Part shown: positions 3,135 to 28,921 of the stretch, piece after piece
Position numbering within the stretch: the stretch's first letter is position 1
How the letters are laid out: each line of letters starts with the position of its first letter
NCBI GenBank assembly: GCA_024639455.1
Contig: JAHEIH010000004.1
Coordinates: 161,371 to 225,370 of the forward strand
Length of the DNA stretch: 64,000 nt
Reading direction: 5' to 3'
From: Cellvibrionales bacterium
Lineage (GTDB): Bacteria; Pseudomonadota; Gammaproteobacteria; Pseudomonadales; JAHEIH01
Program-made: the position numbers and the translations under genes
The notes under the pieces: model-generated
Told to the model about the DNA's origin: nothing
Databases searched by the model: none
What the model saw: the letters and a program-made list of their open reading frames with translations, nothing else

Positions 3135-5372
3135 TTACCCTTTCAACGCCTTGATAAAAGGCTGATCGTACAAGCGTTTGCCTGAAGCGCTGTATATCGC
3201 ATTGGCCAGTGCGGGCATCGCCGGTGGCATCGGAGGTTCACCCAAGCCTGTCGGGTCGATTTGGCTTTCCACAAAATGTACATCGATATTGTTGGGAGCT
3301 TCCAACATTCGAATAATGCGGTAGTTATCGAGATTGCGTTTCTGTGGCACGCCTTCGACGAAGGTCAGTTCACCGTACATCGCATTGCCGATACCGTCTA
3401 CGATACCGCCCTCCGCCATGTTGATGGCGCCGTCGCGATTCACCACGATGCCGCAGTCAAGCGCCGAGGTGACGTTGACGACGGTTGGTTCGCCGTTGGC
3501 CATGTCCACTTCGACAATGTTGCAGCAATAGGAGTTATGGCAGAAGTAAGCGGCCACACCCATGGCGCGATCGCCGCGAGCATTCCAATTTACTTTGTCA
3601 CGGGCGAGCTTTAATACACCGGCGTAGCGGTTGGCATCGTAATCATTTTTTTCGCCCACGGGGTTGTTGGCGGCGCGTTCAAGCAGTTGCAAACGGAATT
3701 CGATGGGATCGGCACCGGCGGTTTCAGCGACTTCATCCAAGAAGCACTGTTCTGCGGTGGCCATGAAGTTTGAGTTGGGTGCGCGGAAGGCACCGACAGT
3801 GATATTCGATGCTACCGATCCCTCTTCCCACAAGAAATTATCCACGGCGCCGGCGGGGAAGCGATTTGGAAAGCTGCAAGGCTCCGGTACGCCGGCTGAA
3901 CGGACGTGGTAACCAATAAGTTGGTTGTTAGCGTCTAATGCAGCGCGCAACTTGATCAGGTAGGAGGGGCGATAGACGCCGACAGTCATATCCTCTTCGC
4001 GGTCGTAGGTCAGGTGCACAGGGCGTTGCACGTGTTGAGAGATCAGTGCGACTTCGGTAGCAAAGTGCAAATAGAGTCGGCGACCAAATCCACCTCCCAT
4101 TCGGGTCATGACAATTTCAACCTTGCTGGGATCCATACCTAAATGTGCGGCTACAGTGTTGTGTGCCAATACAGGCCCTTGGTGGGGGCCGATCAGCTTG
4201 GCGCTCTCTTTGCCCACATCGGCGAAAAAGTTTAGAGGCTCCATCGGATTGTGCGCTAAAAAGGGCGCGCTGTAAGTGCGTTCAACCACTTTGGCAGCGT
4301 TGGCAAAGGCCGTGCTGGGATCACCGTCAAGGCGTTTTTGTTCCATATCGCCATCGATCAAGGCTTGCATCGCCTTGTTGTGATCAGTGGTACTTTCCAC
4401 TTGCTTGGGTACAGTGACAGTACTCTTGTTACCGAAGAAGTCCGCTGACTGATAGGAATAAGACTCTTGGAGTTTCCACGTTACCATGATGGCTTTTTTG
4501 GCCTTCAGCACATGCCAGGTAGTGTCGCCGACAATGGCGATCACTTCGCGGAAGGCGGCCACATCGGAGAAACCACGCACAAAATCATCGGGGAATAGCT
4601 TAATAGTAAAGATGTCGTGAATGCCTGGCATCTTTTTGGCGTCGCTCGCATCGTAACTATCGATGGTCATGCCGAAGGCAGGGGCATGCAGCACAGTGGC
4701 GCGTAGCATACCTTCCTGGCGTACGTCGATGCCAAACATGGCGTCGCCTTTAACGATGCTTGGCCCGACTAAGTTTTTGCGTGAAGTGCCAACGATGTTG
4801 AAGTCAGCTTTGTCTTTGAGTGTGGCCTCTTTAGGCAGTGGTAGCATGGCTGCTGCCGCGGCCATCTCGCCATAGCTAGCGCGTTTACCACTGGCGTGGC
4901 TCAGCATTGAATTTTCGGTGTGTATTTCGTCAACAGGCACGCCCCAGGCATTGGCAGCAGCGGTGCGCATCATTTGCCGAGCCGTGGCGCCGGCCATGCG
5001 CAGCCCTCCCCAGTTATTCATCACAGACCAGCTGCCACCGCTGATTTGCATACCGAATTTCTTGGCGTTGTAAGGCGCTTGAACCGCGCGAATATCTTCC
5101 CAGTTCGCATCCATCTCCTCGGCGGCAATCATTGGGAACGAGGTCATTAAGTTCTGGCCGAAGTCGGGGTTAGCGACGTTGACTTCGATATCTCCACTAG
5201 GGTGAATCGACAAAATGGCGTTCAGCTCAAACCATTCGCTTGGCGCTTCTTTGGCGTCGGCGGCGAGAGTATGAGGCGCGGCTAGTAAGTTAAAACCTAG
5301 TGATAAGCCGCCGGCGGTGGCGGTGGCTTTTAAGAAAGAACGGCGTCCAATGGCTGTCTTAAAGATCGTCAT
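3135..5372 (-). CDS. molybdopterin-binding subunit of an IorB/aldehyde-oxidase-type molybdenum hydroxylase, Tat-exported
   Basis: 745 aa. Twin-arginine signal IGRRSFLKATATAGGLSL. Similar over its length to xanthine dehydrogenase-family beta subunits (for example GGGFGRR). It lies next to a 2Fe-2S subunit, XdhC and MocA. Confidence 0.85.
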   Translation of the reverse strand: MTIFKTAIGRRSFLKATATAGGLSLGFNLLAAPHTLAADAKEAPSEWFELNAILSIHPSGDIEVNVANPDFGQNLMTSFPMIAAEEMDANWEDIRAVQAPYNAKKFGMQISGGSWSVMNNWGGLRMAGATARQMMRTAAANAWGVPVDEIHTENSMLSHASGKRASYGEMAAAAAMLPLPKEATLKDKADFNIVGTSRKNLVGPSIVKGDAMFGIDVRQEGMLRATVLHAPAFGMTIDSYDASDAKKMPGIHDIFTIKLFPDDFVRGFSDVAAFREVIAIVGDTTWHVLKAKKAIMVTWKLQESYSYQSADFFGNKSTVTVPKQVESTTDHNKAMQALIDGDMEQKRLDGDPSTAFANAAKVVERTYSAPFLAHNPMEPLNFFADVGKESAKLIGPHQGPVLAHNTVAAHLGMDPSKVEIVMTRMGGGFGRRLYLHFATEVALISQHVQRPVHLTYDREEDMTVGVYRPSYLIKLRAALDANNQLIGYHVRSAGVPEPCSFPNRFPAGAVDNFLWEEGSVASNITVGAFRAPNSNFMATAEQCFLDEVAETAGADPIEFRLQLLERAANNPVGEKNDYDANRYAGVLKLARDKVNWNARGDRAMGVAAYFCHNSYCCNIVEVDMANGEPTVVNVTSALDCGIVVNRDGAINMAEGGIVDGIGNAMYGELTFVEGVPQKRNLDNYRIIRMLEAPNNIDVHFVESQIDPTGLGEPPMPPAMPALANAIYSASGKRLYDQPFIKALKG

Positions 5373-5383
5373 GGTGGGCCTCC

Positions 5384-5848
5384 TTATGCTTTTTGAGCAG
5401 CGGATTTAATCGCTGCACGAATACGTGTGTAGGTACCGCAGCGACAAATGTTGCCACTCATGAATTGGTCGATATCGGCATCGCTAGGGTCGGGGATTTG
5501 TGCCAATAGTGCCGCTGCGGACATCATCTGGCCGGGCTGACAGTAGCCACACTGCGCTACGTCATGCTCAAGCCAGGCTTCTTGAACAGCGTGCATGCGG
5601 CCGGCGTCATAGGCAAGCCCTTCAATGGTGATGACACTAGCCTCTCCAACGGCAGAAACGGGCAGTTGGCAGGAGCGAACCGCGGCGCCATTAATGTGCA
5701 CGGTACACGCACCGCACGCGCCGGCACCGCAGCCAAACTTGGTGCCGACCATGTCGAGTGAATCACGTAATACCCACAGCATAGGAGTGTCTGGATCGAC
5801 GTCGACCGTGACCGCTTGTTGGTTAATGTTAAGGGTGTATTTAGCCAT
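5384..5848 (-). CDS. (2Fe-2S)-binding small subunit of the molybdenum hydroxylase
   Basis: Cluster motifs [12 protein letters not shown] and CGYCQPG...CRCGTY are typical of IorA/CoxS-type subunits. Confidence 0.9.
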
Positions 5849-7490: not shown

Positions 7491-9839
7491 CTACCATTTG
7501 TCCTTTTGGTAGCGTTGGTTGCGGGCGTCTTTGATGACGCCAGACCAGTTCAAACCGAAGCCGAAGTCATAGTCGTTGCCCTTGCTGTCGACATAGGTCT
7601 CCATGTCCATCGGCATGTCTTCCTGTTGTTTTTCTACCGTGGCCATATCGATGGGCATCTGCATGGGCAGAAGACCGCTAGGCTCGGCGCGGCCGGTCAA
7701 CATGTCTTGGATGGCGCTGACTTGCACGCCAAATTCCAGCAATATGCCATCGACTAATGGCTCAACGTCGCCGAACACCATCGGGTTAGTCGCGCTGACC
7801 ACCATGATCACAGGCTTGTCGCCCATAGTTTTACGCAATGCCTGCAGCATCGGTAGGTCGGGGCGGCTATTAGATTTTGCCGTTTTCCCTTTGTAAGAGC
7901 GGTTGGTAATTTTGGGGTCAACGACGGGGTCGCCAGCGGCAATACTCTGTTCGCGTGCTTCGGTGGCGACGTAGTCGGCATGTTGCAAGCTGATGGGTAA
8001 GTAACCGTTGCCACCAGCGGCGCGGTCGCTACGCGAGTAAGGGTCGCTCACGGGGCTCTTCACGAAGGCCAGCGCAAAGTCAGCTTGAGTGGGATCATCG
8101 GTGACCACAAAATCCTTCGCCAACAAGTTGCGATCGATGGGATACATCTCGTGCGCAGGATCGGGGTAGCCGAAGAAGTTGAGCTTCTCGGGCACCGAAA
8201 TCTTGGGTACATACACCACTTTTTTGTCGGCGGGGAGCGGTAACACAGCATCGTTTTTCAACATTACGATCGATTTCAATTGCGCGTCGTAGCCTGCTGC
8301 CATGTACTCGGGTTTGCCGACCACTGCGGTGGTGGTTTCAGGATTCAAGTAGGGGTTTTCAAACAGGCCAACGCGGAAGATGTTTTTCAGCAAGCGCACC
8401 GCTGAGCGCTCGATGCGTGCGCGCGCGGCTTTTGTGCCATACTTTTCGCTCAGCACGTTGAAGGCGCCCAGCACAGGCCCCGCTTCATTGTTACCACCGA
8501 ATTGATCGAGGCCTGCTTCCAGTACTTTGACATGGCGCTCTACCACGTCCAGTGTTTCAACCCCCCAGTTTTTACCCGCAAAGACAGCGGGGTCTTTGCC
8601 TTCATCCCAGGTAATACCCCAGTCGGTGCATACTACACCGTCGTAGCCAAAGCGCTCGCGCAGCAGATCGGTAATGATGTACTTGCTGAAGCCGTTGCCG
8701 ACGTTTTCGCCGTACACGGTGTCTTGCTCATAGGAAATGGTGTAATAGGGCATTACCGCTGAGGCACTGCCCGTTTTGCCCTTCAATTTGAAGGCGCCTT
8801 CGACGAAGGGTTTCATGTGGGTTTCGAACTGACCGCCGGGATAGACGGCGAACTTACCGTACGCAAAGTGACCGTCGCGGCCGCCTTCTTCGGGACCACC
8901 GCTGGGCCAGTGTTTGACCATGGTGTTAACACTCTGCCAACCCCAACCATCGGCCAGCTCCTGTGATGCTGGGCTAGTTTGGAAACCGTCCACATACGCG
9001 CGCGCTAAATCGGTTGCCAGTGCAGGGTGGCCGCCAAAGGTGCCGTACAGACGGTTCCAACGCGGTTCTGTGGCCAAATCAATTTGTGGTGACAGCGCGG
9101 TAGTAATACCGAGGGCGCGGTATTCAATCGATGCGATGCGGCCAAATTCTTCGGTGATACTTGGATCAAAGGTGGCAGCCAAGCCAATTTGTTCGGGCCA
9201 CTGCGAAATGGTGCCGCCTGATCCCGCATTGTATTCCGCCTCTTTGCGCGCACCGTGACGAGGGTCGGAAGAATTGTTAGCGGGAATGCCAAAGCCAATG
9301 CTTTCGGCGAGGGCTTGCAGGTTGTTATTCCAGAGCGCGGCGACTTCGGGGCTTTCAACGTTGGTCAGTAGCACGTGGCGCAGGTGGTCTTCAGTAATGA
9401 ACTGCTTCTGGGCATCACTCAATGTGTGCGAAGGCAGTCCCGATTCGCTAAATGGCTTGCCGTTGTAGGTCGCGGCGAAATAGCCGCTGTCGGCCGCGGG
9501 TATCGCTTGGTGTTTGCTGTATAGCATCAACCCGGCAATCTCGGCTTCGCTGAGCATGCTAGCAAGATTCTTGGCGCGTGTGTCTGCGTCGAGGCGCCAG
9601 TCTTCGTATGGGTCGAGTTGGCCATTTTTGTTTAGATCTTTAAAGGGCAGCCCGTCGACTTCCAAAATACTCACGCCCGAGGTCTTCGAATAGGTCAGGA
9701 AGGGCTTGCCAGCGATAGACACTTGCATCACATCGCCGTGCATGGCGGTTTCGGTCCACGTGGGTGGCTTGTCGGCGCAGCCAACCAACGCACTACTGGC
9801 GACGGCGGCGGCAATCAGGGATTGCTTAAAGGTTTGCAT
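7491..9839 (-). CDS. glycoside hydrolase family 3 (beta-glucosidase-like) lipoprotein
   Basis: 782 aa. Lipobox ALVGC at the N-terminus. GH3-type segments (KHWPSGGPEEGGRDGH, VCTDWG). Confidence 0.85.
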   Translation of the reverse strand: MQTFKQSLIAAAVASSALVGCADKPPTWTETAMHGDVMQVSIAGKPFLTYSKTSGVSILEVDGLPFKDLNKNGQLDPYEDWRLDADTRAKNLASMLSEAEIAGLMLYSKHQAIPAADSGYFAATYNGKPFSESGLPSHTLSDAQKQFITEDHLRHVLLTNVESPEVAALWNNNLQALAESIGFGIPANNSSDPRHGARKEAEYNAGSGGTISQWPEQIGLAATFDPSITEEFGRIASIEYRALGITTALSPQIDLATEPRWNRLYGTFGGHPALATDLARAYVDGFQTSPASQELADGWGWQSVNTMVKHWPSGGPEEGGRDGHFAYGKFAVYPGGQFETHMKPFVEGAFKLKGKTGSASAVMPYYTISYEQDTVYGENVGNGFSKYIITDLLRERFGYDGVVCTDWGITWDEGKDPAVFAGKNWGVETLDVVERHVKVLEAGLDQFGGNNEAGPVLGAFNVLSEKYGTKAARARIERSAVRLLKNIFRVGLFENPYLNPETTTAVVGKPEYMAAGYDAQLKSIVMLKNDAVLPLPADKKVVYVPKISVPEKLNFFGYPDPAHEMYPIDRNLLAKDFVVTDDPTQADFALAFVKSPVSDPYSRSDRAAGGNGYLPISLQHADYVATEAREQSIAAGDPVVDPKITNRSYKGKTAKSNSRPDLPMLQALRKTMGDKPVIMVVSATNPMVFGDVEPLVDGILLEFGVQVSAIQDMLTGRAEPSGLLPMQMPIDMATVEKQQEDMPMDMETYVDSKGNDYDFGFGLNWSGVIKDARNQRYQKDKW

Positions 9840-10184
9840 GTGGTGCCTCTCGTTGCTGGGGTGACATCACCCCGTCAGGTTTTATCAGTGCATCATGTTA
9901 CCCCAAGCATGCAGCGGTGTAGGGTGAATTTTGTAAGGTTGTTCGGGGTATTTAGAAAAAATTATTGGCCGATGAATAACGGCTGGGATACCTTGTTCAA
10001 AACAACAGGATAGGAACCGTGCCATGAGGAACTTTCTCGCCGTTTTTACGGGGCGCCAAGATGGCGCGAATGCCTAGCGTTGGCAGGTATTGAACGAGGA
10101 TGAGCGGCAGCGATGTTTATCGCTCATCCGCATTTTCGCTGTTTCCCAGGTGATGGGGTGGAAGTGATAGAATATATGCCCATG

Positions 10185-10207
10185 CCGGATGGTCAATAGA
10201 CCACCGG
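10185..10207 (-). terminator. weak hairpin downstream of the small-subunit gene
   Basis: CCGG(A)TGGTC / GACCACCGG stem with loop AATA. The U-tract on the minus strand is poor. Confidence 0.3.
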
Positions 10208-10225
10208 CAGGGTAAGTCGGCTAAC

Positions 10226-10831
10226 TTAGGTCGGCCAAACGGTAGCCCAGTCGCGGTCACCCTCTTTGTAGGGGATGTCCTTGTAGGTGCCGGGGATTTC
10301 TACGTGCCGCAGGACCTCGGTGCCACCTTCTTTACTGGTGAAAAATCCAAAGATGATCAACTGCTTAAACAGCGTGAAATAGTGCGGCAGATCACCAAAA
10401 CCTTCACCTTCCCACACCACTTTCTCGCCCTTGTTATAGGCCAGTGCTTCGCTATCGATAGCGGTTAACAGTTCATTGCGTTCAGCGTCGCTGGCGTCGG
10501 TAAAGCTTTTGCCGAAGTTCAGTTGCGAACGCGTTTCTACATTGGCCATGCCCGCTTCAAAAAGGGCTTGCTGGGTGGGGGTGTAGCAATCGCGGATCAT
10601 GCCAATAACAAAGGCGGGTAGGCCGGCATCCTTGGCTCCGGGGGTGTCGGTGCGTGGAATGACGGTTTCACAAATCTCTTCGATCAGTGCCACTTGCTGT
10701 GCGTTGAAGCCCGAATCTGCCACGCTGGTCGCCGCCGCGGGTGGCTTCCAAATGGCGTAGGCGGGGTTGTAAACAAACGCGGCGCCAGTGGCTACCGCGA
10801 TGGCTTGGAGTAATTCACGACGGTTCATCAT
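10226..10831 (-). CDS. Tat-signal small subunit (gluconate 2-dehydrogenase subunit 3-like) of a GMC dehydrogenase
   Basis: Twin-arginine N-terminus MMNRRELLQAIAVATGAAF, about 200 aa. Its start overlaps the stop of the GMC gene (TAATG). Confidence 0.75.
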   Translation of the reverse strand: MMNRRELLQAIAVATGAAFVYNPAYAIWKPPAAATSVADSGFNAQQVALIEEICETVIPRTDTPGAKDAGLPAFVIGMIRDCYTPTQQALFEAGMANVETRSQLNFGKSFTDASDAERNELLTAIDSEALAYNKGEKVVWEGEGFGDLPHYFTLFKQLIIFGFFTSKEGGTEVLRHVEIPGTYKDIPYKEGDRDWATVWPT

Positions 10832-12522
10832 TACAGGTTACCTCGCTTCAGTTCTTCTACCGCGAACTCTGCGGCGCGGGCGGTTAATGCCATGTAGGTC
10901 AAGGAGGGGTTCACACACGACGCTGAGGTCATGCACGCGCCGTCGGTGACGAATACATTGGGGGCATCCCACACTTGGTTGTGCTGGTTCAATACCGATG
11001 AATTGGGATCTCGACCCATGCGTGCGGTGCCCATTTCGTGGATGCCCTTACCCATGTGGTAGGTGGTTTCCCATGACTTAGCATTTTTCAGGCCGATGCT
11101 GTCGAACATCTCAACGATGTCTTCTTTCATAGCCTTGCGCATTTTGATTTCGTTATCGCGAATCTTAGCGTCCATTTCTAGCACTGGCAGGCCCCAGGCA
11201 TCGCGGGTCTCAAAGTTGAGCGACACCTTGTTGCGGTGATCGGGCAGGATTTCGCCGAAGCCTGTGGCGTTAATGGTCCACTTGCCGGGCTCGGCCAAGC
11301 TCGCTTTGAGGCCGGCGCCAATGCCGAGTTCGCTGCTGTCGCGCATGAAGCCTTCACGGCCCGCACGACCCTGGAAGCCGAAGCCGCGCAGGAAGTCGCG
11401 CTTGTCGCTGCCCCAGTTGGCAAAGCGTGGGATATAGAAACCGTTGGGGCGACGACCGTAGGTGTGCTGATCCAGGAAACCATCCACTTCCGCCGAACCG
11501 CCTAGCATGTAGTGGTGGTCCATGACGTTATGGCCGAGTTCACCGGAGCTCGAGCCCAAACCATTGTCCCAAACGTCACGCGCTGAGTTCATTAGAATCC
11601 AGGTTGAGTTGAGGGTCGAGGCGTTCAAGAACACGATCTTGCTATTAAAGGTGATTGTTTCGTGCGTTTCTGCATCAATCACTTCTACGCCTGTTACGCG
11701 TTGGGTGTTCTTATCGTAGATTAGCTCTTTAACGATAGACATGGGGCGAACTGTGAGGTTGCCGGTCTTCATTGCCGCAGGCAGGGTGGTTGATTGCGTA
11801 CTGAAATAGCCACCAAAGGGACAGCCGGTCCAGCATTTGTCGCGGTGCTGACACTTGCCGCGGCCCTGATCGGGACGGTTTTCGGTGGCATGTGCGCAAC
11901 GACCAATAATCAGGTGGCGCTCCCCTTTGTATTGTTTCTTGATGCGAGCGGCCACGTCACGCTCTACCACATTCAAGTTCATGGGGGGCAAAAAGTCGCT
12001 GTCGGGCAATACATCTAGGCCATCGTTGTTACCCGAAATGCCGGCAAAGCGCTCCACGTAGCCGTACCACTTCTCGAGATCTTCGTAGCGAATGGGCCAG
12101 TCGACGGCGATACCTTCTTTACCATTGGCCATGAAGTCTTCGCGGTTCAAACGGTAGGTTTGACGACCCCACAGCAGTGAACGACCCCCCATTTGGTAGG
12201 CGCGAAACCATTGAAAAGGCTCTTTTTCAACGTAGGGTGCCGTTTGATGGCTTGCCCAAGCGCCCATGGTGGGCTCATTGAAGGGGTAGCCTGTGCCGCG
12301 TGCCATATTTGGCTCAGTCGCTTTGGCTTCGAGGCTGGGGCGCCCGTGGTGTGGGTAGTCCCACAGGTTTTTTTGCATGTTGACATAGTCTTTCAGGTGC
12401 TGGACGTCGCCACCGCGCTCCAGCATCAACACTTTAAGGCCTTTTTCGGTCAGTTCTTTGGCTGCCCAGCCGCCGCTGATGCCAGAGCCGACGACGATTG
12501 CGTCATAGGTATTGTTTGCCAT
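10831..12522 (-). CDS. GMC-family FAD-dependent oxidoreductase (sugar/glycoside dehydrogenase candidate), no own signal peptide
   Basis: FAD fold YDAIVVGSGISGGWAAKELTEKGLKVLMLERG, 563 aa, GMC C-terminal domain. Confidence 0.85.
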   Translation of the reverse strand: MANNTYDAIVVGSGISGGWAAKELTEKGLKVLMLERGGDVQHLKDYVNMQKNLWDYPHHGRPSLEAKATEPNMARGTGYPFNEPTMGAWASHQTAPYVEKEPFQWFRAYQMGGRSLLWGRQTYRLNREDFMANGKEGIAVDWPIRYEDLEKWYGYVERFAGISGNNDGLDVLPDSDFLPPMNLNVVERDVAARIKKQYKGERHLIIGRCAHATENRPDQGRGKCQHRDKCWTGCPFGGYFSTQSTTLPAAMKTGNLTVRPMSIVKELIYDKNTQRVTGVEVIDAETHETITFNSKIVFLNASTLNSTWILMNSARDVWDNGLGSSSGELGHNVMDHHYMLGGSAEVDGFLDQHTYGRRPNGFYIPRFANWGSDKRDFLRGFGFQGRAGREGFMRDSSELGIGAGLKASLAEPGKWTINATGFGEILPDHRNKVSLNFETRDAWGLPVLEMDAKIRDNEIKMRKAMKEDIVEMFDSIGLKNAKSWETTYHMGKGIHEMGTARMGRDPNSSVLNQHNQVWDAPNVFVTDGACMTSASCVNPSLTYMALTARAAEFAVEELKRGNL

Positions 12523-12614
12523 GGTAGTCCTTCTTGCTTAGCAGGATACTGCTTTGCTCGTTATTCTGTTGGGGTTCAAAACCACGGATGTAATATGGAT
12601 TTGAGACGATAAAA

Positions 12615-12628
12615 TGTAACCGGTTTCA
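12615..12628. promoter_or_regulatory. LacI-type operator TGTAACCGGTTTCA
   Basis: One mismatch to TGTAAnCGnTTACA. It lies 93 bp upstream of the GMC start, in the region divergent from the lacI-like gene. Confidence 0.6.
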
Positions 12629-12735
12629 TGTTGGTCGTCAATCAACCGCCCGGTATATCTGACAAGGCGGGTCGTTTGTCAGTCAAAAAGCGAGGGATGT
12701 GCATAGGATAAAAGTGTGACATGCTATAGACTTGC

Positions 12736-12764
12736 AAAAAAAAGCAGCCCCCAGTAGGGGCTGC
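12736..12764 (-). terminator. minus-strand-oriented rho-independent terminator upstream of the lacI-like gene
   Basis: Perfect 8-bp stem GCAGCCCC / GGGGCTGC (12744-12764), preceded on the plus strand by eight A (a U-run on the minus strand). Confidence 0.7.
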
Positions 12765-12808
12765 CAATAATCACTAACAGGGAGATCAAAAATGAGTACG
12801 CTCTCTCT

Positions 12809-12822
12809 TGAAAACGTTTACA
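12809..12822. promoter_or_regulatory. LacI-type operator TGAAAACGTTTACA (possible autoregulation)
   Basis: One mismatch to the consensus. It lies about 100 bp upstream of the LacI start at 12924. Confidence 0.55.
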
Positions 12823-12923
12823 GATACTACCAAGCGAATAAGACGCTGGCAACGCCAATATCAAAAATGCTTACAAAAGCGTATAAGGCTCGGTAAAACA
12901 ACTAACGGGATGAAGGAAAGCTT

Positions 12924-13928
12924 ATGGCTACCATCAAAGACGTTGCAAAACTCGCCGGTGTCTCGGTAGCTACCGTGTCTCGCTACTTGAGTGGCGCTTC
13001 TAAATTAACCACCTCTACTGAAGCCAAGGTTAAGGGAGCGATCGAAACACTTAGCTATCGGCCCAACATCATGGCGCGAAGTCTCAGTCAATCACGCTCA
13101 GATATGTTGATGGTGCTGGTGTCCGGTGTGAGCAGCCCATTTATTAGTAATTTGTTGAGTGCTTTTAGTAAACCTGCTTCTGCCCGTGGTTATAAAGTAT
13201 TGCTCGCCGAAACTTCGATGGACCAAAAGATTGAAGCCACCTATATCGAGGCGCTGCGCTCGCGGTTAGCTGATGGTTTCGTGCAGTTGAGTGCCCACTT
13301 GCACCCCGAGATGCTGGATAAAAAGCACACTATTCCATTCGTGAACGTGTGTGAGTGCCTCCCCGAAGCGACCTACCCGACGGTGCAGATCGACGATAAA
13401 CGTGCAGCTAAACAAATCACCGAATTTCTTATCTCATTGGGTCACCGAGAAATCGCCTGTCTGGTTGGTCTATACAACGATCAGTACCGCAGCCCGGTCA
13501 CTGTGAAACGATTAGATGGTTTTCGTGACGCGCTCGATGGCAACGATATCGAGTTTCACGCAGAGTGGATGTTGCAGGGGGACTACACCACGGATTCTGG
13601 CGTACAGGCGGCGCAGACTATCGCCGAGATGAAGCAGCGCCCAACCGCTGTATTCTGTGCCAGTGATACCATGGCGATTGGTTTAATTCGTGGACTGGCT
13701 AATTTGGGTATTAACGTGCCCGACGACATTTCGGTCACGGGCTTTGACGATATCGAGATGGCGAAGTACACCGTACCTTCGCTGACGACGATCAGGCAGC
13801 CGGTGGAAAAGATTGCTAATGCCGCTATTAACAATCTCATCGATATTATCGAGGAGAAGGCCCATGTGCGGCAGCATGTCACGATTGAGCATGAGCTCAT
13901 TCTTCGAGGCAGCACCCGCCGCCTCTAG
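12924..13928 (+). CDS. LacI-family transcriptional regulator (paralogue 1)
   Basis: HTH MATIKDVAKLAGVSVATVSRYLSG plus a periplasmic-binding-protein-like sugar-binding core. Confidence 0.9.
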   Translation: MATIKDVAKLAGVSVATVSRYLSGASKLTTSTEAKVKGAIETLSYRPNIMARSLSQSRSDMLMVLVSGVSSPFISNLLSAFSKPASARGYKVLLAETSMDQKIEATYIEALRSRLADGFVQLSAHLHPEMLDKKHTIPFVNVCECLPEATYPTVQIDDKRAAKQITEFLISLGHREIACLVGLYNDQYRSPVTVKRLDGFRDALDGNDIEFHAEWMLQGDYTTDSGVQAAQTIAEMKQRPTAVFCASDTMAIGLIRGLANLGINVPDDISVTGFDDIEMAKYTVPSLTTIRQPVEKIANAAINNLIDIIEEKAHVRQHVTIEHELILRGSTRRL

Positions 13929-17240: not shown

Positions 17241-20200
17241 TTAGAAGCTGTAACGAGCTGACAACATGTAACGTGGATCAGCTTCGCCGTTCCAGTACTG
17301 CATACCTTCAGTACGGCCGTAGATCTTCTGGCCTTCGCCAGTCACGTTAATGCCATCCAGGCTTACGACGATGTCATCAGTTACGTTGTAAGTGATGTTC
17401 AAGTCGATCTGGCTGAACTCTTTAACGAATACGGGTGAACCAGCTTGGCCAGCGTATGCGGTTGAGTTCAGGAAGGTGTCACGCCAGTTGTATGCAACAC
17501 GTGCAGACAGCGCGTCATCTTCGTACATCAGCACCAAGTTAGCAGAATCAGACAGGCCTAACAAGGCGAACTGAGAAATGCTTGGGTCAGCCGATACATC
17601 GTAACCGATGTCGCCGTCAACCATGGTAGCGTTAGCGCTAACACCGAAGCCAGTGTCACCGAAGAAGTGCTGTACAGCGAATTCCCAACCGTCAATAGTC
17701 GCAGCTTGGTTGTTTACAGGCTGTGAAGTATTGAAGGTGTACAAAGGATCGCTCGCTCCGGGAGTGATGTCGTAATCAGCTTCTACCTGAGTAGTGTTGA
17801 TCGCTGAGAACTGAGTTGCAGTCAGAGCGTCGACTGAACCTACACCTGCCCAGTTAGCGTTGCCGTCACCGAAGTTCTGGATCAGCGCTGACATGGTGAA
17901 CATGTTGTCTTCGTTGACGTTCAGACCCAGTGCTTGCAGTTTAGCCAGAGCTTGACCAGACAAGCTGCCAGCTGTTGCCGCACCCGCGTCACGCAGGCCG
18001 AACAGAGACTGAGGAACTACTGCAGTACCCACGAAGTTTTCTACTTTCTTGTAGAAGTAGCCCGCCGACACGTAGCTAGCTTCGCCGTAGTAGTATTCCA
18101 ACGACAGGTCGAAGTTGTCAGACTCGAGAGGATCCAGTTTAGCGGTACCTTTGCTTGCAGTGGGGTAGCCACCCAAGTAAGTCAGAGTACCACCGGTAGA
18201 ACCGATACCCGTCTTAACGAACATGTCGCTGTAGCCTGGACGTGCGATTGACTTGCCGTAAGAAGCGCGCAGCTTCATTTCGTCAGTCAGGTCAACAGAA
18301 ACGTCCAAGTTTGGCAGGATGTTGCTGTAAGAGTAGTCTTCATCCAGTACTGCAGGAGACGCGCCAGCGTAGCTCTGTGCGAAGTCGTTGTTTGATTCCC
18401 AAATAATTGCAGTGGGAGACACTTGGACAGTCGCGGAGTTTACGTCGGTTTCTTCGTAGCGTACGCCGAAGTTCACTTGAACTGGCTTGCCAGAGAACTC
18501 AGTTTCCCACTTACCGTTCACGTAGACTGACGTAATGTCTTCGCTGATCAGGTTGTCGTTGCCGCCTGATGAGGTCAGATTATTCAACGAGAAGTTGGGG
18601 TAGATGTCGTTCTGCGCATCCATGTATTGAATGAACGAGTACGCGTCAACGGTGAAGGCTTGTTGACCCAAGATGGTCATGACGTAGCCATCAGGTGCAA
18701 TGCCAGTAGCGTTGGGGAAACCGTTGAACTGCAGATCGCCAAATGCACAAGTACCACAGATTTCAGTGATTTGATTGTCGTCAGGGATGTCGCCGTTACC
18801 CACGCCCCAACCACCGAGGTAGTCCGTAGTGCCTGAGTTTACTTGCGCCATTTCAGTTGACAGGAAGCCTGCACCGAAATCAACAGTCAGGCTGTCATCT
18901 ACTTCATAAGTACCGTCCAGGTTGAACTGGTCGATAGAAGATTTCTGCATTGAGCTGTTGGTGATGAAGGTTTGGGTGTTGATGTCGCCACGGTCGTAAA
19001 CGCCGTTGCCGTTACCCCAAGCGCCGTGTGAACCGTCAGCATCTACGTAGCCTTCGCTTTCCAGTACACCTACTGATGCAGTGGGAACACCGTCGCCGTA
19101 GTAAGCGGCCTGCCAGCCAGAACCTGAAGAAGCGATGTTGATGCGAGTACCTGCCCAGCCGTTAGGACCGTTACCACCAGACTCTGCTTCAGATGAAGCG
19201 GCATCTAAGCTGACGGTCAGTCGATCGCTGAACTCGTGACGGATGTTGATACCGAAAGACTGCATGGTGTCTTTTGACGCATCGTAGCGGTTGGCGTAGA
19301 AGTAGTCTTTACCTTCGTTAGGCACGCCGTCAGTGGTAGGCAGACGGTGCAATTCAACCAGTGCCAAAGGTGTGGCTACAATGGGGTTGCCGTCGAACTC
19401 AACGTATGAGTAGTTGCGGTTGAACCAAATACCAGGAACAACACCCGTTTGCTCTTGAGTGGTTTGGGTGTACAGCACGTCAGCAGTAATGGTAGTGCGG
19501 TCGCTTGGTGCGAACTGCATAGTGACCATGGCATTTGAACGCTCACGGTTCAGATCCATGATGTTCATGCCTATGTTCCAAGGAATCGCTACCAACGAAC
19601 CAGCAGCTGGCTCGTTAACGCGCTCAGCGTTTGCCCAAGGGCCCAGAGTAGGATCGTAGTCCAGGTACTGGTAACCAGAAACGTTTACACCGGCTGCGCC
19701 AGAGCTACGCTCTTGGTATGAACCAAACACGCTGATACCGAAAGTGTTGTCTTCGTTAGCCATGCTGAACAAGCCGCTGACTTCAGGCGTGATGTCCTTG
19801 TTGCCAGACTGGTCGTTAACCAATTTAACGCCAACAGACGCTTGGTCACCCGCTTCCAGAGGACGGTTGGTTTGAACGTTGATAGTCGCGCCCATACCAC
19901 CGCTAACAACTTTAGCGTTAGCTGTTTTGTAAACTTGAATACCTTGTACGCCTTCAGACGCCAGGTTTGAGAAGTCAAACGAACGAGAAGTACCCAGTGC
20001 GCCAGCTTCGTCAGAGTTACCAGTGACGTTGGCAACGTTTGCAGAGGGCATTTGACGACCGTTCAAGGTCACCATGTTGTAGCCGCCACCGAAACCACGA
20101 ACGGTTACTTGTGAGCCTTCGCCGTTTACACGGTCAATCGAAACACCGGTAATACGCTGCAGAGATTCTGCCAAGTTGGTGTCAGGGAATTTACCCATGT

Positions 20201-20387
20201 CTTCTGCAGAAATTGCATCAACAACACCTGATGAATCGCGTTTTACGTCCATTGCACGCATCAATGAACCGCGAATACCTGTAACTACAACTTCTTCAAC
20301 AGTGTTTTCTTGTGCAACAGCTTGGCCAGCAGCCAAAGTTGAAGTCACGCCAGCAATGACGAGAGAAAGTTTTGTTCTTCGAAACAT
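17241..20387 (-). CDS. TonB-dependent outer-membrane receptor (glycan-type, 1048 aa)
   Basis: Signal peptide, TonB box/plug EEVVVTGIRGSL...DAISAEDMGKFPDTNLAESLQRITGV, C-terminal ...RYSF. Confidence 0.9.
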   Translation of the reverse strand: MFRRTKLSLVIAGVTSTLAAGQAVAQENTVEEVVVTGIRGSLMRAMDVKRDSSGVVDAISAEDMGKFPDTNLAESLQRITGVSIDRVNGEGSQVTVRGFGGGYNMVTLNGRQMPSANVANVTGNSDEAGALGTSRSFDFSNLASEGVQGIQVYKTANAKVVSGGMGATINVQTNRPLEAGDQASVGVKLVNDQSGNKDITPEVSGLFSMANEDNTFGISVFGSYQERSSGAAGVNVSGYQYLDYDPTLGPWANAERVNEPAAGSLVAIPWNIGMNIMDLNRERSNAMVTMQFAPSDRTTITADVLYTQTTQEQTGVVPGIWFNRNYSYVEFDGNPIVATPLALVELHRLPTTDGVPNEGKDYFYANRYDASKDTMQSFGINIRHEFSDRLTVSLDAASSEAESGGNGPNGWAGTRINIASSGSGWQAAYYGDGVPTASVGVLESEGYVDADGSHGAWGNGNGVYDRGDINTQTFITNSSMQKSSIDQFNLDGTYEVDDSLTVDFGAGFLSTEMAQVNSGTTDYLGGWGVGNGDIPDDNQITEICGTCAFGDLQFNGFPNATGIAPDGYVMTILGQQAFTVDAYSFIQYMDAQNDIYPNFSLNNLTSSGGNDNLISEDITSVYVNGKWETEFSGKPVQVNFGVRYEETDVNSATVQVSPTAIIWESNNDFAQSYAGASPAVLDEDYSYSNILPNLDVSVDLTDEMKLRASYGKSIARPGYSDMFVKTGIGSTGGTLTYLGGYPTASKGTAKLDPLESDNFDLSLEYYYGEASYVSAGYFYKKVENFVGTAVVPQSLFGLRDAGAATAGSLSGQALAKLQALGLNVNEDNMFTMSALIQNFGDGNANWAGVGSVDALTATQFSAINTTQVEADYDITPGASDPLYTFNTSQPVNNQAATIDGWEFAVQHFFGDTGFGVSANATMVDGDIGYDVSADPSISQFALLGLSDSANLVLMYEDDALSARVAYNWRDTFLNSTAYAGQAGSPVFVKEFSQIDLNITYNVTDDIVVSLDGINVTGEGQKIYGRTEGMQYWNGEADPRYMLSARYSF

Positions 20388-20513: not shown

Positions 20514-20527
20514 TGTAATCGTTTCCA
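20514..20527. promoter_or_regulatory. LacI-type operator TGTAATCGTTTCCA
   Basis: One mismatch. It lies 127 bp upstream of the receptor start. Confidence 0.55.
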
Positions 20528-20634: not shown

Positions 20635-20648
20635 TGAAAACGATTACT
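20635..20648. promoter_or_regulatory. LacI-type operator-like site TGAAAACGATTACT
   Basis: Two mismatches. It lies in the same intergenic region, about 250 bp upstream of the receptor start. Confidence 0.4.
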
Positions 20649-21951: not shown

Positions 21952-23178
21952 CTATTTTGCGTCGCTGCCAAGGGTTTCGTTTTTAAATACCAGTGCGAAC
22001 AGAACGAATACAGCCGCCGCGAAACCAGCGGGAATCAGCCAAATAGTCTGCCAGTCGTGGCTGCCGCCAACAGTGGTGTAGGCGTCGACGATTTTGCCCG
22101 AAGCGGCAAAGCCGATAAGCATACCGATGCCGTAGGTCGCCAGGGTGATCATGCCTTGAGCGGCACTCTTAATTTTTTCGCCGGCTTTATTGTCAGTGTA
22201 GATTTGGCCGCTGACAAAGAAGAAGTCGTAGCAAATGCCGTGCAGAGCGATACCCATCAACAACAGGAACATGCTGTTGTTGGGGTCGCCGTAGGCGAAG
22301 CTGACATAGCGAACAACCCACGCCAGCATGCCGAATAATAAGGTGGCTTTAATGCCGAAGCGCTTTAAAAAGACAGGCAGCAGCAGCATGAACAGTACTT
22401 CTGACACCTGGCCAATGGTCATTTTGCCAGTGGCATTTTCCACCCCAATTTCAGTTAGGAAGGGGTTAGCGTAGGAATAGTAGAACGCTAGCGGGATGCA
22501 GATCAGTACCGAGGCCAGGAAAAATACCGCGTAGTTACGGTCTTTCAGTAAGGCCAGTGCTTCCAGGCCTAGGATGTCGCTGATGCTCACCGCTTGGCCG
22601 CGCGCTGCAGGTGGCGTGGCAGGCAGGGTGAAGCTGTAGAAGCCAAGTACCACAGACACAATCGCGGTCATGGCGAAGGTGTTGCGCAGCATGCCGTTGG
22701 CAATGCTGCCTTGAGAGTCCCAAGAGAATACATAGCTGATCACCAAGCCGGCAACGATCCAGCCGATGGTGCCCCACAAGCGAATCTTACCGAACTCGCT
22801 GGCGGGGTCTTTCAATTGGTTGAACGATACCGAGTTCACAAGTGCCAGTGTCGGCATGTAGCACAGCATGTAGACGAACAGGTAGGGATAGAAGCTGTTG
22901 AAGTCTGACGAGGTGAAGAGCAGGTACATCAGACCTGCACCGACTAGGTGTAGCACACCTAAAATGCGCTCGGCGTTGAAGTAGCGGTCAGCAATCAGGC
23001 CGATAATAAAGGGCGCGATAATCGCACCCCAGGACTGTGTGCCGTAGGCCATGCCGATTTCGCCGCCGTTGGCTTGCAGGGTGCTGCCCATGAAGGTGCC
23101 CAGGGTAACGAACCACGCGCCCCAAACAAAAAATTGCATAAACATCATTGCGCACAAGCGCACAGTAATCGCGTTCAT
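21952..23178 (-). CDS. MFS transporter, nucleoside:H+ symporter (NHS)-like
   Basis: 12-TM profile. The N-terminus VRLCAMMFMQFFVWGAWFVTLGTFM is typical of NupG/XapB/YegT-like permeases. Confidence 0.7.
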   Translation of the reverse strand: MNAITVRLCAMMFMQFFVWGAWFVTLGTFMGSTLQANGGEIGMAYGTQSWGAIIAPFIIGLIADRYFNAERILGVLHLVGAGLMYLLFTSSDFNSFYPYLFVYMLCYMPTLALVNSVSFNQLKDPASEFGKIRLWGTIGWIVAGLVISYVFSWDSQGSIANGMLRNTFAMTAIVSVVLGFYSFTLPATPPAARGQAVSISDILGLEALALLKDRNYAVFFLASVLICIPLAFYYSYANPFLTEIGVENATGKMTIGQVSEVLFMLLLPVFLKRFGIKATLLFGMLAWVVRYVSFAYGDPNNSMFLLLMGIALHGICYDFFFVSGQIYTDNKAGEKIKSAAQGMITLATYGIGMLIGFAASGKIVDAYTTVGGSHDWQTIWLIPAGFAAAVFVLFALVFKNETLGSDAK

Positions 23179-23204: not shown

Positions 23205-24344
<1,140 letters not shown>

Positions 24345-24399: not shown

Positions 24400-24413
24400 T
24401 GTAAACGTTTGCA
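24400..24413. promoter_or_regulatory. LacI-type operator TGTAAACGTTTGCA in a 79-bp divergent intergenic region
   Basis: One mismatch to the consensus. It lies between the Gfo/Idh/MocA start (24344) and the Tat TIM-barrel start (24424). Confidence 0.6.
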
Positions 24414-24423
24414 TAGGTGCAAT

Positions 24424-25263
24424 ATGATAAATATTACAACTTCCCGCCGAGGTCTTTTGAAATCCGCCGCTGCATTTGCAGCTCTCGCTTCCGTTCCCAG
24501 CGTGTTTGCGCACGGCGATCACGCCCGTGTCGGTTTACAGCTATACACGGTGCGCGACCTCGCCAAAGAGGATTTTTTAGGTGCGCTAGAACAAGTGGCG
24601 GCGATTGGCTACAAGGACATGGAATTCGCCGGTTACTTCGGTCACTCGGTGCAAACTCTGCGTCGTCACCTCGATGCGTTGGGTATGGCCGCTCCCTCGG
24701 CACACATTCCTTTGAACGCGTTTCAAGATAATACAGACAAAGTCATTGAAGACGCCCTGGTGATGGGCCATCACTACTTGGTCATGCCCTACCTGACCCA
24801 AGAGCAACGCACAGGCGGTATTGAAACCTATAAACGTCTGGCTGAATTTCTCAACGGCGTGGGTGAAAAATGCCGCGCTAGCGGCATCATGTTGGCCTAC
24901 CACAACCACGACTTTGAATTCCAAGCCGAAGATGGCCAGTTGCCCTACGACGTATTGTTAGAGGTGCCTGCCGACAATATGCTGATGGAGATGGATCTTT
25001 ATTGGACCATTAAGGCAGGCTACGATCCCGTGGCATACTTCGCTAAACACCCTGGTCGCTTCCCGCTGTGGCACGTGAAAGACATGGACGCTGAGGGTAA
25101 CTTTGCTGATGTCGGTACCGGCACCATCGATTTTGAGCGTATCTTTGCACAGCGACAATTAGCGGGTTTGCAGCACGGCTTTGTCGAGCGTGATCGCACC
25201 GACAACTTAGCGCGCACATTGACCCGCAGCTTTGAGGGTGCCAAGCGCTTCATTGAAGGTTAA
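24424..25263 (+). CDS. Tat-exported xylose-isomerase-like TIM-barrel protein (paralogue 1)
   Basis: Twin-arginine signal MINITTSRRGLLKSAAAFAALASVPSVFA. Core segments LQLYTVRD, YHNHDFEF, EMDLYW and WHVKD. The ORF-track start at 24292 was rejected because it overlaps the neighbouring gene and the operator. Confidence 0.8.
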   Translation: MINITTSRRGLLKSAAAFAALASVPSVFAHGDHARVGLQLYTVRDLAKEDFLGALEQVAAIGYKDMEFAGYFGHSVQTLRRHLDALGMAAPSAHIPLNAFQDNTDKVIEDALVMGHHYLVMPYLTQEQRTGGIETYKRLAEFLNGVGEKCRASGIMLAYHNHDFEFQAEDGQLPYDVLLEVPADNMLMEMDLYWTIKAGYDPVAYFAKHPGRFPLWHVKDMDAEGNFADVGTGTIDFERIFAQRQLAGLQHGFVERDRTDNLARTLTRSFEGAKRFIEG

Positions 25264-28300: not shown

Positions 28301-28886
28301 CGGCTTCATTGGTACCGCGGTATTACTGCCGTCCTTGTCGGAGGCGGGTTTCGATGAGGCAGCCTATCGATTGTTGCAGCAGGAAGCCTACCCATCGTGG
28401 ATCTACCCTGTGAAAAACGGCGCGACAACGATATGGGAGCGTCTGAACTCATACACCCACGAAGAGGGTTTTGGTGGCAATAATAGTATGAACTCCTTCA
28501 ATCACTACGCTTTTGGTTCGGTAGGGGAGTGGTTGTATCGCTACAGCTTGGGTATCCGTCCATTGACGCCAGGCTATCAGCGCTTCGCCTTGCGGCCTAC
28601 GCCCGACCCCACAGGGCAGATGTCATTTGCTGAAGGGCATGTCGATTCGCCCTATGGGCGTATCGCCTCGCGTTGGGAGGTCTCAGCTAGCGATACGCGC
28701 TACACATTTAACGTGCCAGCGAATACCTCTGCTGAGGTGGCGTTATTAGCAAACCCTGAGCTCACACGAATCAATGGTGAGCGCTTGGTTGAGGCAGGTC
28801 GAGCTTTCGACGCCGAAGCAGGCCGAATCCAATTGACGCTAGGAAGTGGCGAATACTTGATCGAGGTGGCAGAGGCGACCGACTAA
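25323..28886 (+). CDS. glycoside hydrolase family 78 alpha-L-rhamnosidase lipoprotein (1187 aa)
   Basis: Lipobox LILGC. Rhamnosidase N-domain pattern ARGAYEIYLNGERLGEQMFMPGLTQY...AEGWWSG. Catalytic six-hairpin segment IPTDTPARNERMGWGGD, and GFRYMEI. Confidence 0.85.
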   Translation: MLKSFVTALGVTLLSALILGCGAKPSPTKLQVVNLGVEGRAAPLAVDVATPRFSWQLTSNQPSVQQKSYHIVVTQGKSVVWDSGNIASNASVHVPYAGTSLQPEQDYQWRVSVSTNVGDASAQGRFVTGMMMAPGEVEGWAGAQWVGGGDSDLPFYSHALPVFQVEYSVQLHNSQRASFVFGANDARLQDASQNIYRIASGHNESYLSLALDIAPLQQGKLAQLLVYRVGYHPDDSSDKPLAVLDVPSAAINIGNAYQPHHFVVRSNVSRLDIAITNDEQQWWLAKQLVVNPVGNSHDFIAFPQLADIGFQMSQGQAATFSNLRIKHYRAPQSTLFEERGVDSIFSDVEGVSYAAGKYHLDGERTVMATADPSRNAMPMLRHAFASKTGELISARLFATARGAYEIYLNGERLGEQMFMPGLTQYNATHEYQTFDVTSLIIAGGENVLAAQLAEGWWSGAITFHTNLWNFFGDRQSLIAKLVLRFSDGSEQVITTQPDTWQFFNQGPLRASSIFQGEVYDAPIAAAMAGWNDVGFDASAWQPAQIVAAQDIAPYVEPFPWSGRTFAFNFEDLHFIAQPDEGVDVAAELTAQSVVKVAPDIFIYDFGQNMAGVPQVTLVGEAGQQIQMRFAEVLYPDRPEHPGLAGTMMMENIRAAMAQDTFVLAGGNEVLQPRFTYHGFRYMEIKGLEEALPLAQVKALSLSSVNQLNASFNSSNANVNKLWQNISWSLRSNFFSIPTDTPARNERMGWGGDINVFARTALHLADAGPFLARHMTALRDTQQADGRFPDVAPVVGGFGGTLWGTAGTVIPWEVYQQTGDSKILRDNFAAMARYVDYLTGRIDPATNILDEGPLGDWLSPEGSKNDDTLFWEAYYLHSLRILADSAAVLQDAVNEQKYRDLFSARLAHYQRVYFNDKGKSRSSGFAGIMFGQKDPALKQVGTPIDSQASYAVPLAMSLLQGDMQRKAQQNLLAAVSRSNTDDLGKQRPPYSLMTGFIGTAVLLPSLSEAGFDEAAYRLLQQEAYPSWIYPVKNGATTIWERLNSYTHEEGFGGNNSMNSFNHYAFGSVGEWLYRYSLGIRPLTPGYQRFALRPTPDPTGQMSFAEGHVDSPYGRIASRWEVSASDTRYTFNVPANTSAEVALLANPELTRINGERLVEAGRAFDAEAGRIQLTLGSGEYLIEVAEATD

Positions 28887-28905: not shown

Positions 28906-28921
28906 TGTAACCGATTACATT
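28906..28921. promoter_or_regulatory. LacI-type operator TGTAACCGATTACATT
   Basis: Perfect match to the consensus core. It is the exact reverse complement of 2304-2319 and lies 64 bp upstream of the 28985 start. Confidence 0.65.

Follow-up and report, generated by a model that had tools for sequence, protein, structure and literature searches.

A probable periplasmic glycoside 3-dehydrogenase, formed by a GMC flavoprotein and a small twin-arginine partner, in a LacI-type glycoside regulon of a marine gammaproteobacterium

What is the function of a flavoprotein of the GMC family that has no signal peptide, whose gene runs directly into that of a small protein with a twin-arginine leader and beside which no cytochrome is encoded? 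This question is raised by a gene pair at positions 10,226-12,522 of a 64,000-nucleotide stretch of contig JAHEIH010000004.1 from a Cellvibrionales bacterium (assembly GCA_024639455.1, positions 161,371-225,370), the whole of which is referred to here as the window. The evidence assembled below indicates, with a probability of roughly 0.8, that the pair forms a periplasmic glycoside 3-dehydrogenase carrying flavin adenine dinucleotide (FAD) and an iron-sulfur cluster, and that it belongs to the subfamily known as FAD-glycoside-oxidoreductase (FAD-GO), GlycDH or glucoside 3-dehydrogenase (G3DH). A preliminary description of this DNA had come to much the same view, which stands in substance, the kind of enzyme being one that is already established.

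The large protein (563 residues) consists of the Pfam domains GMC_oxred_N (PF00732) and GMC_oxred_C (PF05199). Its N-terminus reads MANNTYDAIVVGSG, with the GxGxxG-type FAD-binding motif DAIVVGSGISGG at residues 7-18; the FAD fold begins at residue 6 and therefore leaves no room for a signal peptide. The 201-residue partner was assigned to Gluconate_2-dh3 (PF13618) with an E value of 7e-35, and its translation begins with the twin-arginine leader. In the raw sequence of the minus strand the two genes meet in a TAATG at 10833-10829, in which the GMC stop codon TAA (10833-10831) and the ATG of the small subunit (10831-10829) have base 10831 in common. The preliminary description had thus read the missing signal peptide, the leader and the shared base correctly. 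In NCBIfam the flavoprotein had only matches far below cutoff, and the small subunit had no match.

Over its full length the flavoprotein is 63.2% identical to a GMC protein of Stenotrophomonas maltophilia, 64.7% identical to UniProt D8VN91 ("glucoside 3-dehydrogenase"), 63.2% identical to Halomonas proteins and 58% identical to Sphingobacterium proteins. Phylogenetic analysis places it in a well-supported Alteromonadales-type clade that is sister to a clade of Stenotrophomonas, Halomonas, D8VN91 and Ketogulonicigenium sequences, with Sphingobacterium outside both; it is therefore bracketed by lineages with assayed members. The FAD-GO subfamily was defined from the enzyme of Rhizobium sp. GIN611, in which His493 is the catalytic base, and oxidation of the C3 hydroxyl with deglycosylation of glycosides was demonstrated for the enzymes of A. 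tumefaciens, S. maltophilia and S. multivorum (Kim et al., 2015; PMC4650693). Marine Zobellia homologues with 53-58% identity have already been named putative FAD-GOs. Membership of the window protein in the FAD-GO/GlycDH/G3DH clade is supported by these comparisons, and the identity as a two-subunit glucoside 3-dehydrogenase suggested in the preliminary description gains support from the 63-65% identity and the placement inside the clade. The Agrobacterium GlycDH gene was also sought in a plasmid collection, where no Agrobacterium record was found at E 1e-100, and this gene is therefore presumably chromosomal.

The sequence motifs are those of the subfamily. The catalytic histidine, His495, lies in the segment GIHEMGTAR and corresponds to position 493 of both the S. 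maltophilia and the D8VN91 protein; the published primers for mutagenesis of His493 in the Rhizobium sp. GIN611 enzyme encode the same segment (APGMGI-H-EMGTAR). Cys224, Cys230 and Cys234 form a C-x5-C-x3-C motif of the 3Fe-4S type, which is kept in 120 of 120 close homologues and in 119 of 119 Stenotrophomonas-like homologues and which aligns with the cysteine-rich stretch of the large subunit of fructose dehydrogenase (FDH). The corresponding region of the B. cepacia FAD-dependent glucose dehydrogenase (BcGDH) binds a 3Fe-4S cluster that relays electrons from FAD to the acceptor (PMC6719666). The FDH large subunit and the alpha subunit of FAD-dependent glucose dehydrogenase (FAD-GDH) are the closest solved structures, with full-length matches at E 1e-31 to 1e-27. 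The histidine of the FDH motif GGTTWHW aligns pairwise with Leu117 (GGRSLLWG) of the window protein, and the family consensus is likewise without it; the equivalence of this histidine to His105 of BcGDH (covalent FAD) was deduced rather than aligned.

In the small subunit an RR-E-L-L motif is followed by a hydrophobic stretch and an AYA cleavage-type site. Arg4 and Arg5 are invariant in 26 aligned homologues, and the RR motif, the hydrophobic region and the cleavage or lipobox site are retained across phyla. A small subunit is found at 65 of 79 related loci, and a natural fusion (database protein P0151, 717 residues) carries a small-subunit-like domain (profile E 3e-11) N-terminal to its GMC domain. 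A `TAT protein' is encoded downstream of FAD-GO oxidoreductases, its ATG overlapping the oxidoreductase TAA in A. tumefaciens and S. maltophilia (PMC4650693), and GlycDH was co-expressed with a TAT-pathway signal protein (Kastner et al., 2023; PMC10628242); the inserted gene known from Kim et al. (2015) is also present at the Sphingobacterium loci retrieved here. Export as a hitch-hiker is the accepted role of the BcGDH gamma subunit (PMC6719666). Because the flavoprotein has no signal of its own, the leader of the partner is conserved and this role of the gamma subunit is accepted, we infer that the flavoprotein is very probably carried into the periplasm by the small subunit through the twin-arginine translocation (Tat) pathway. 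The preservation of the twin-arginine motif across phyla supports the proposal of Tat-partner export made in the preliminary description.

Comparison of the small subunit with solved structures, both as a single sequence and as a 26-sequence profile, gave nothing significant and did not find 6A2U chain A, and a Foldseek search with its AlphaFold model (pLDDT 77) returned no matches. Superposition of the model on 6a2u_A (BcGDH gamma) with VIA-align gave a weak result (Z 3.5, root-mean-square deviation 4.1 over 74 residues), with which unrelated helical proteins tie. In many small subunits of Bacteroidota (L008, L011, L019 and L028 among the related loci, and others) the M-x-RR leader is accompanied by a lipobox cysteine (for example ...FLSGCK...), suggesting that they are Tat-exported lipoproteins that would tether the dehydrogenase to a membrane.

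The absence of a nearby cytochrome gene, which the preliminary description had pointed out, extends well beyond the pair: no class I cytochrome c domain was found on the entire contig (C12), and no open reading frame with three CXXCH motifs is present in the host genome, which is 99.5% complete. Genes for soluble cytochromes of the mono-haem and di-haem kinds do occur on other contigs, at C27:65585-66031, C27:185726-186331, C27:186350-186697 and C25:90307-90750. Among the 79 related loci, which come from many phyla, only six have a CXXCH reading frame within 3 kb of the pair and 73 have none, so that an unlinked cytochrome is the norm of the clade. The electron acceptor of the Rhizobium radiobacter enzyme is a separate mono-haem cytochrome c (PMC9915066), and GlycDH uses ferricyanide at least 100-fold better than O2 (Kastner et al., 2023; PMC10628242), from which it follows that it is a dehydrogenase and not an oxidase. 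At L047 (13980-14375) and L049 (13911-14291), which are Pedobacter and Flavobacterium loci with the order small-GMC-Gfo-MFS-TIM, a single-CXXCH reading frame of 126-131 residues with a signal-like N-terminus lies approximately 2.3 kb downstream and could be a dedicated acceptor in those lineages. In the host genome the cytochrome c domain PF13442 was observed in reading frames of approximately 640-730 residues (C22:186397-188586, C25:71810-73945, C25:93194-95386, C25:107919-110000 and C5:95879-97786), near the C-terminus in four of the five and near the N-terminus in that of C5.

The pair is under the control region of a LacI-type regulon. The operator nearest to the GMC gene overlaps the -10 hexamer of the promoter-like site, and a search with the consensus TGWAANCGNTTWCA, allowing at most one mismatch, identified seven sites in the window against 0.48 expected by chance. 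Exact matches number four in the 2.88-Mb genome, all of them inside the window; with up to one mismatch there are 46 sites genome-wide, of which seven fall within 27 kb of window sequence and one lies in the promoter of a paralogous operon on contig C15. Operators are located upstream of the GMC operon, lacI, the TonB-dependent receptor gene, the divergent Gfo/TIM-barrel pair and the second TIM-barrel gene (Table 1). The earlier assignment of the pair to a glycoside regulon through a LacI-type operator in its promoter is borne out by these counts. On the minus strand between 12736 and 12852, a promoter-like site (12852-12824) and the operator at 12809-12822 are accompanied by a strong hairpin of the terminator type that has a U-run (12765-12743), and the three could together give rise to a transcript of approximately 80 nucleotides between lacI and the GMC promoter; a search of Rfam with 9500-13200 produced only a GcvB-like match, below threshold (23 bits against a cutoff of 42).

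Table 1. Positions of the gene pair, the regulatory sites and the neighbouring genes in the window
Feature	Position	Strand	Evidence or remarks
Catalytic subunit, 563-residue GMC flavoprotein (FAD-GO/GlycDH/G3DH type)	10831-12522	minus	Open reading frame list, translation, Pfam
Small subunit, 201 residues, PF13618, twin-arginine leader MMNRRELLQ	10226-10831	minus	Open reading frame list, translation, Pfam
LacI-type operator TGTAACCGGTTTCA	12615-12628		Palindrome; 93 nt upstream of GMC ATG
Promoter-like site TTGACG-17-TACATT of GMC operon	12613-12641	minus	Consensus match only
Second LacI-type operator TGAAAACGTTTACA	12809-12822		Between GMC promoter and lacI
LacI-family repressor, divergent, likely regulator of the operators	12924-13928	plus	Domain match
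Tat-exported xylose-isomerase-like TIM barrel, lyase homologue	24421-25263	plus	Operator 24400-24413
Second Tat-exported TIM-barrel lyase homologue	28985-29935	plus	Operator 28906-28919
Cytoplasmic Gfo/Idh/MocA oxidoreductase, proposed 3-keto sugar reductase	23205-24344	minus	
NHS-type permease of the major facilitator superfamily (MFS)	21952-23178	minus	Recurs with Gfo beside GMC/small pairs of other genomes
TIM-barrel protein, cytoplasmic, 412 residues	20704-21942	minus	
TonB-dependent receptor, proposed glycoside uptake	17241-20387	minus	Operators 20514-20527 and 20635-20648 upstream
Glycoside hydrolase family 3 (GH3) lipoprotein	7491-9839	minus	386 nt downstream of small subunit
GH78 alpha-L-rhamnosidase lipoprotein	25323-28886	plus	Between the two lyase genes

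The genes that share the operators point to a pathway for 3-keto-glycosides. The two Tat-exported TIM barrels match the lyase structures 8TCD/8TCS/8TCT with E values of 1.5e-30 and 8e-18 and 8BVK (AtOGE) with E values of 4e-26 and 3e-10, and an esterase lipoprotein is also among the regulon neighbours. The presence of two exported homologues of 3-keto-beta-glucoside lyases in the regulon supports the suggestion that the pair catalyses the entry step of non-hydrolytic glycoside cleavage. The further suggestion in the preliminary description, a part in C-glycoside metabolism, did not hold in the same way: C-glycoside cleavage is not implied, as lyases of the AtOGE and AL1 types do not cleave 3-keto-C-glycosides (PMC10628242; bioRxiv 10.1101/2024.03.25.586180), and for this reason it was not adopted as a main role.

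The same context recurs at other loci. A Gfo gene accompanies the pair at 29 of the 79 related loci, an NHS-type MFS gene at 20 and a lyase homologue at 16; Tat motifs are present on 12 of 17 lyase homologues linked to related GMC pairs, and among the rest several have a hydrophobic N-terminal leader of Sec-like character. A Ketogulonicigenium plasmid (GMC protein 67% identical) shows the order LacI-TIM-Gfo-GMC-small-TIM with no cytochrome. On the Rhizobium leguminosarum plasmid pRlX3 (L005), a GMC protein of 32% identity occurs alone, with no small subunit, behind genes for a sugar importer of the ATP-binding cassette (ABC) type, a LacI protein and a sugar phosphate isomerase/epimerase; this solitary protein may represent a version of the chemistry that takes place in the cytoplasm.

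Downstream of the pair, the small-subunit stop is separated from the start of the GH3 gene by 386 nucleotides (9840-10225, minus strand) in which no intrinsic terminator was predicted and whose folding is more stable than that of shuffled sequences (z -3.4). Transcription might run on into the operon of the GH3 gene and a Tat-exported molybdenum hydroxylase. At 3135-5848 on the minus strand, a molybdopterin large subunit has a twin-arginine leader (GRRSFLKA) and its 2Fe-2S partner has none; these proteins look like a second periplasmic dehydrogenase of the hitch-hiker type, again with no linked cytochrome.

Three GMC/small-subunit pairs are encoded in the genome: that of the window and those on contigs C15 and C13. 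The C15 pair, whose GMC protein is 72% identical to the window copy, forms an operon of the order LacI-GMC-small-DUF1080 (C15:235297-239437; L086:7298-11438) with a one-mismatch operator between lacI and the GMC gene (C15:238421); the final gene encodes a secreted DUF1080 protein (PF06439, `3-keto-disaccharide hydrolase', E 5e-37). In the more distant C13 pair (C13:43830-47312; L087:10831-14313; 48% identical) the small-subunit gene precedes the GMC gene, and a Rieske/VanA_C-type oxygenase follows; genes for an MFS transporter, an alpha/beta hydrolase and a GH97 enzyme lie to the sides, as does a TonB-dependent receptor with a halogenase. A division of labour between the three is rather unlikely but can be put forward tentatively. 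The window copy would be tied through its own LacI regulon to the Tat-exported beta-glycoside lyases (AL1/OGE type) and work with the TonB-dependent receptor, GH78, GH3 and the esterase on natural-product glycosides of the rhamnoglucoside type; the C15 copy would be tied to DUF1080 (alpha-glycoside lyase/hydratase type) and act on disaccharides; the C13 copy would be tied to the Rieske oxygenase; and electrons from all three would pass through the iron-sulfur cluster to shared soluble cytochromes. If this were true, oxidative deglycosylation would be an energy-yielding, receptor-fed counterpart of the polysaccharide-utilisation locus in marine Gammaproteobacteria.

Several points weigh against assigning the pair to the periplasmic glycoside 3-dehydrogenases. 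The tree is a quick maximum-likelihood search with a midpoint root, and membership in the subfamily is given by species-level orthologues and by bracketing in this tree, not by the exact characterized proteins AEX01166.1, WP_003515231.1 and Halomonas alpha-15 G3DH. The enzymology of the subfamily comes from other lineages, with none for Alteromonadales-type members or the window protein. Of the two recent paralogues, that of the window has diverged further (63-65% identity to the reference clade, compared with 70-72% for C15). The small subunit has no significant sequence match and only a weak structural match to BcGDH gamma, and Kim et al. regarded the partner as a chaperone-like solubility factor (PMC4650693). 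Export, the type of cluster and the electron acceptor are all predictions.

The divergence of the window copy raises the possibility that it retains the fold and the export route and has changed its specificity to another glycone (for example rhamnosides, galactosides or uronides) or another ring position, the canonical role being kept by the C15 paralogue. Besides the distances just given for the two paralogues, the somewhat longer branch of the window copy, the association of the two copies with different lyase types and different LacI genes and the GH78 rhamnosidase in the window regulon would fit such a change. However, the catalytic and cysteine motifs are unaltered, the characterized FAD-GO enzymes are already broad in both glycone and aglycone (PMC4650693), and the lyase homologues of the regulon are of the 3-keto-beta-glucoside type, so that a shift of this kind is unlikely. 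It is far less probable still that the pair is the catalytic core of a classical three-subunit dehydrogenase (gluconate 2-dehydrogenase or the FAD-glucose, fructose or sorbitol enzymes) whose membrane cytochrome c is encoded elsewhere or has been lost. The Pfam name of the small subunit and the solved structures nearest to the flavoprotein would suggest this, but the latter are remote matches (E 1e-27 to 1e-31) in comparison with the 63-65% full-length identity to the FAD-GO/G3DH clade. In addition, the 99.5%-complete genome has no reading frame with three CXXCH motifs, the great majority of related loci (73 of 79) have no CXXCH frame within 3 kb, and the context comprises enzymes for glycosides and 3-keto sugars rather than for ketogluconate. 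Gluconate 2-dehydrogenase itself was rejected, as this name comes from nothing more than the Pfam family to which the small subunit was assigned.

The location of the flavoprotein could also be questioned, in that it might stay in the cytoplasm with the small protein acting as a folding or solubility chaperone and not as a carrier across the membrane. The TAT protein did raise soluble expression and was called chaperone-like by Kim et al. (PMC4650693), and solitary signal-less GMC relatives adjoin ABC importers in Rhizobium plasmids. A twin-arginine motif, hydrophobic region and cleavage or lipobox site kept across phyla would, however, be unexpected in a cytoplasmic chaperone; the partner lyases are exported themselves, and the gamma subunit of BcGDH, the presumed counterpart of the small protein, is accepted to act as a hitch-hiker carrier (PMC6719666). 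A purely cytoplasmic enzyme therefore appears very improbable, and assignment of the pair as a periplasmic glycoside 3-dehydrogenase is preferred.

The closest counterparts of the window pair are the FAD-GO/GlycDH systems of Rhizobium sp. GIN611, A. tumefaciens C58, S. maltophilia GIN612 and S. multivorum GIN723 (PMC4650693; PMC10628242). In these as in the window, the GMC protein has approximately 561-563 residues and the histidine of GIHEMGTAR, the gene downstream encodes a twin-arginine partner and begins with an ATG that overlaps the TAA, and a Gfo reductase and two TIM barrels, one of them an eliminase of the OGE type, are encoded in linkage with the pair. The regulon thereby repeats the logic of the A. 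tumefaciens GlycDH/AtOGE/AtHYD/Gfo genes (Kastner et al., 2023; PMC10628242). It differs in being marine gammaproteobacterial and approximately 63% identical rather than 67-93%, in being one of three pairs in its genome, in having its lyase and reductase genes outside the operon of the pair and scattered over a LacI regulon that also takes in GH78, GH3, an esterase and a TonB-dependent receptor, and in the Tat signals on both lyases. The G3DH enzymes of Rhizobium radiobacter and Halomonas sp. alpha-15 (cited in PMC9915066) likewise combine a flavoprotein that has a cysteine-rich iron-sulfur motif with a hitch-hiker small subunit and have no fused or membrane tri-haem subunit; the Halomonas species orthologues compared here are 63% identical, the alpha-15 sequence itself not being in the comparison, and the R. 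radiobacter enzyme is unlike the window pair in that its own mono-haem cytochrome c acceptor is identified. The B. cepacia FAD-GDH (gamma-alpha-beta, 6A2U) and Gluconobacter FDH (7W2J) share the catalytic subunit (full-length homology) and the cysteine-rich motif and also have a small Tat subunit assigned to the PF13618 family, whereas the window system has no tri-haem cytochrome subunit. Unlike BcGDH, the window flavoprotein has no second cysteine after the first cluster cysteine, and a BcGDH-type alpha-gamma disulfide is therefore absent.

The Caulobacter crescentus LacABC lactose/salicin 3-dehydrogenase with its DUF1080 hydrolases (PMC9007349) is compared here by layout and pathway: periplasmic 3-oxidation is followed by cleavage of the 3-keto product, and transporter, epimerase-like and reductase genes are neighbours. 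LacABC requires three components, whereas the window pair has two genes and TIM-barrel lyases in place of DUF1080; the C15 paralogue shows the exact GMC-small-DUF1080 layout, the theme of Caulobacter LacABC/DUF1080 and of AL2/BT2. The AL/BT cluster of gut Bacteroidales (Nasseri et al., bioRxiv 10.1101/2024.03.25.586180; 8TCD/8TCS/8TCT) follows a similar periplasmic route of oxidation, elimination, hydration and reduction, and its AL1/BT1 lyases are homologous to the two Tat-exported TIM barrels of the window. Its oxidase, however, is a Tat-exported Gfo/Idh/MocA enzyme with tightly bound nicotinamide adenine dinucleotide operating in a redox-neutral cycle, whereas the window enzyme is predicted to be an FAD/iron-sulfur dehydrogenase that would pass electrons to the respiratory chain.

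The gene structure, homology, motifs, regulon sites and conserved context are established directly, and from them we infer every step of the following mechanism. The flavoprotein would fold and load its cofactors in the cytoplasm and bind the small subunit, whose twin-arginine leader would take the complex through the Tat pathway. Glycosides would enter through the TonB-dependent receptor and be trimmed in the periplasm by the GH78, GH3 and esterase lipoproteins. There the flavoprotein would oxidize the C3 hydroxyl of the glycone, with electrons passing from FAD to the cysteine-bound cluster and on to a soluble periplasmic cytochrome c encoded elsewhere, as in the R. radiobacter enzyme. The resulting 3-keto-glycoside could then be split through beta-elimination by the two Tat-exported TIM-barrel lyases, and the NHS-type MFS permease could bring the keto-sugar into the cytoplasm, where the Gfo/Idh/MocA enzyme would reduce it. 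The LacI repressor would govern the whole set.

The arrangement is not novel. The TAT partner and the overlap of ATG and TAA were reported in 2015 (PMC4650693) and an operon for oxidation, elimination, hydration and reduction in 2023 (PMC10628242). Also already published are the enzyme subfamily (2012/2015), the iron-sulfur and hitch-hiker architecture (2016-2019), the genetics of the Caulobacter periplasmic 3-dehydrogenase (2010/2022) and the downstream eliminase, hydratase and reductase (2023-24). What the locus adds is a marine gammaproteobacterial example of oxidative, non-hydrolytic glycoside cleavage, with no new mechanism, in which a single LacI regulon unites the dehydrogenase, two exported lyases, a reductase, a permease and an outer-membrane receptor with classical glycosidases. 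It thus offers a compact system in which to ask which glycosides take the oxidative and which the hydrolytic route, and which periplasmic cytochrome accepts the electrons.

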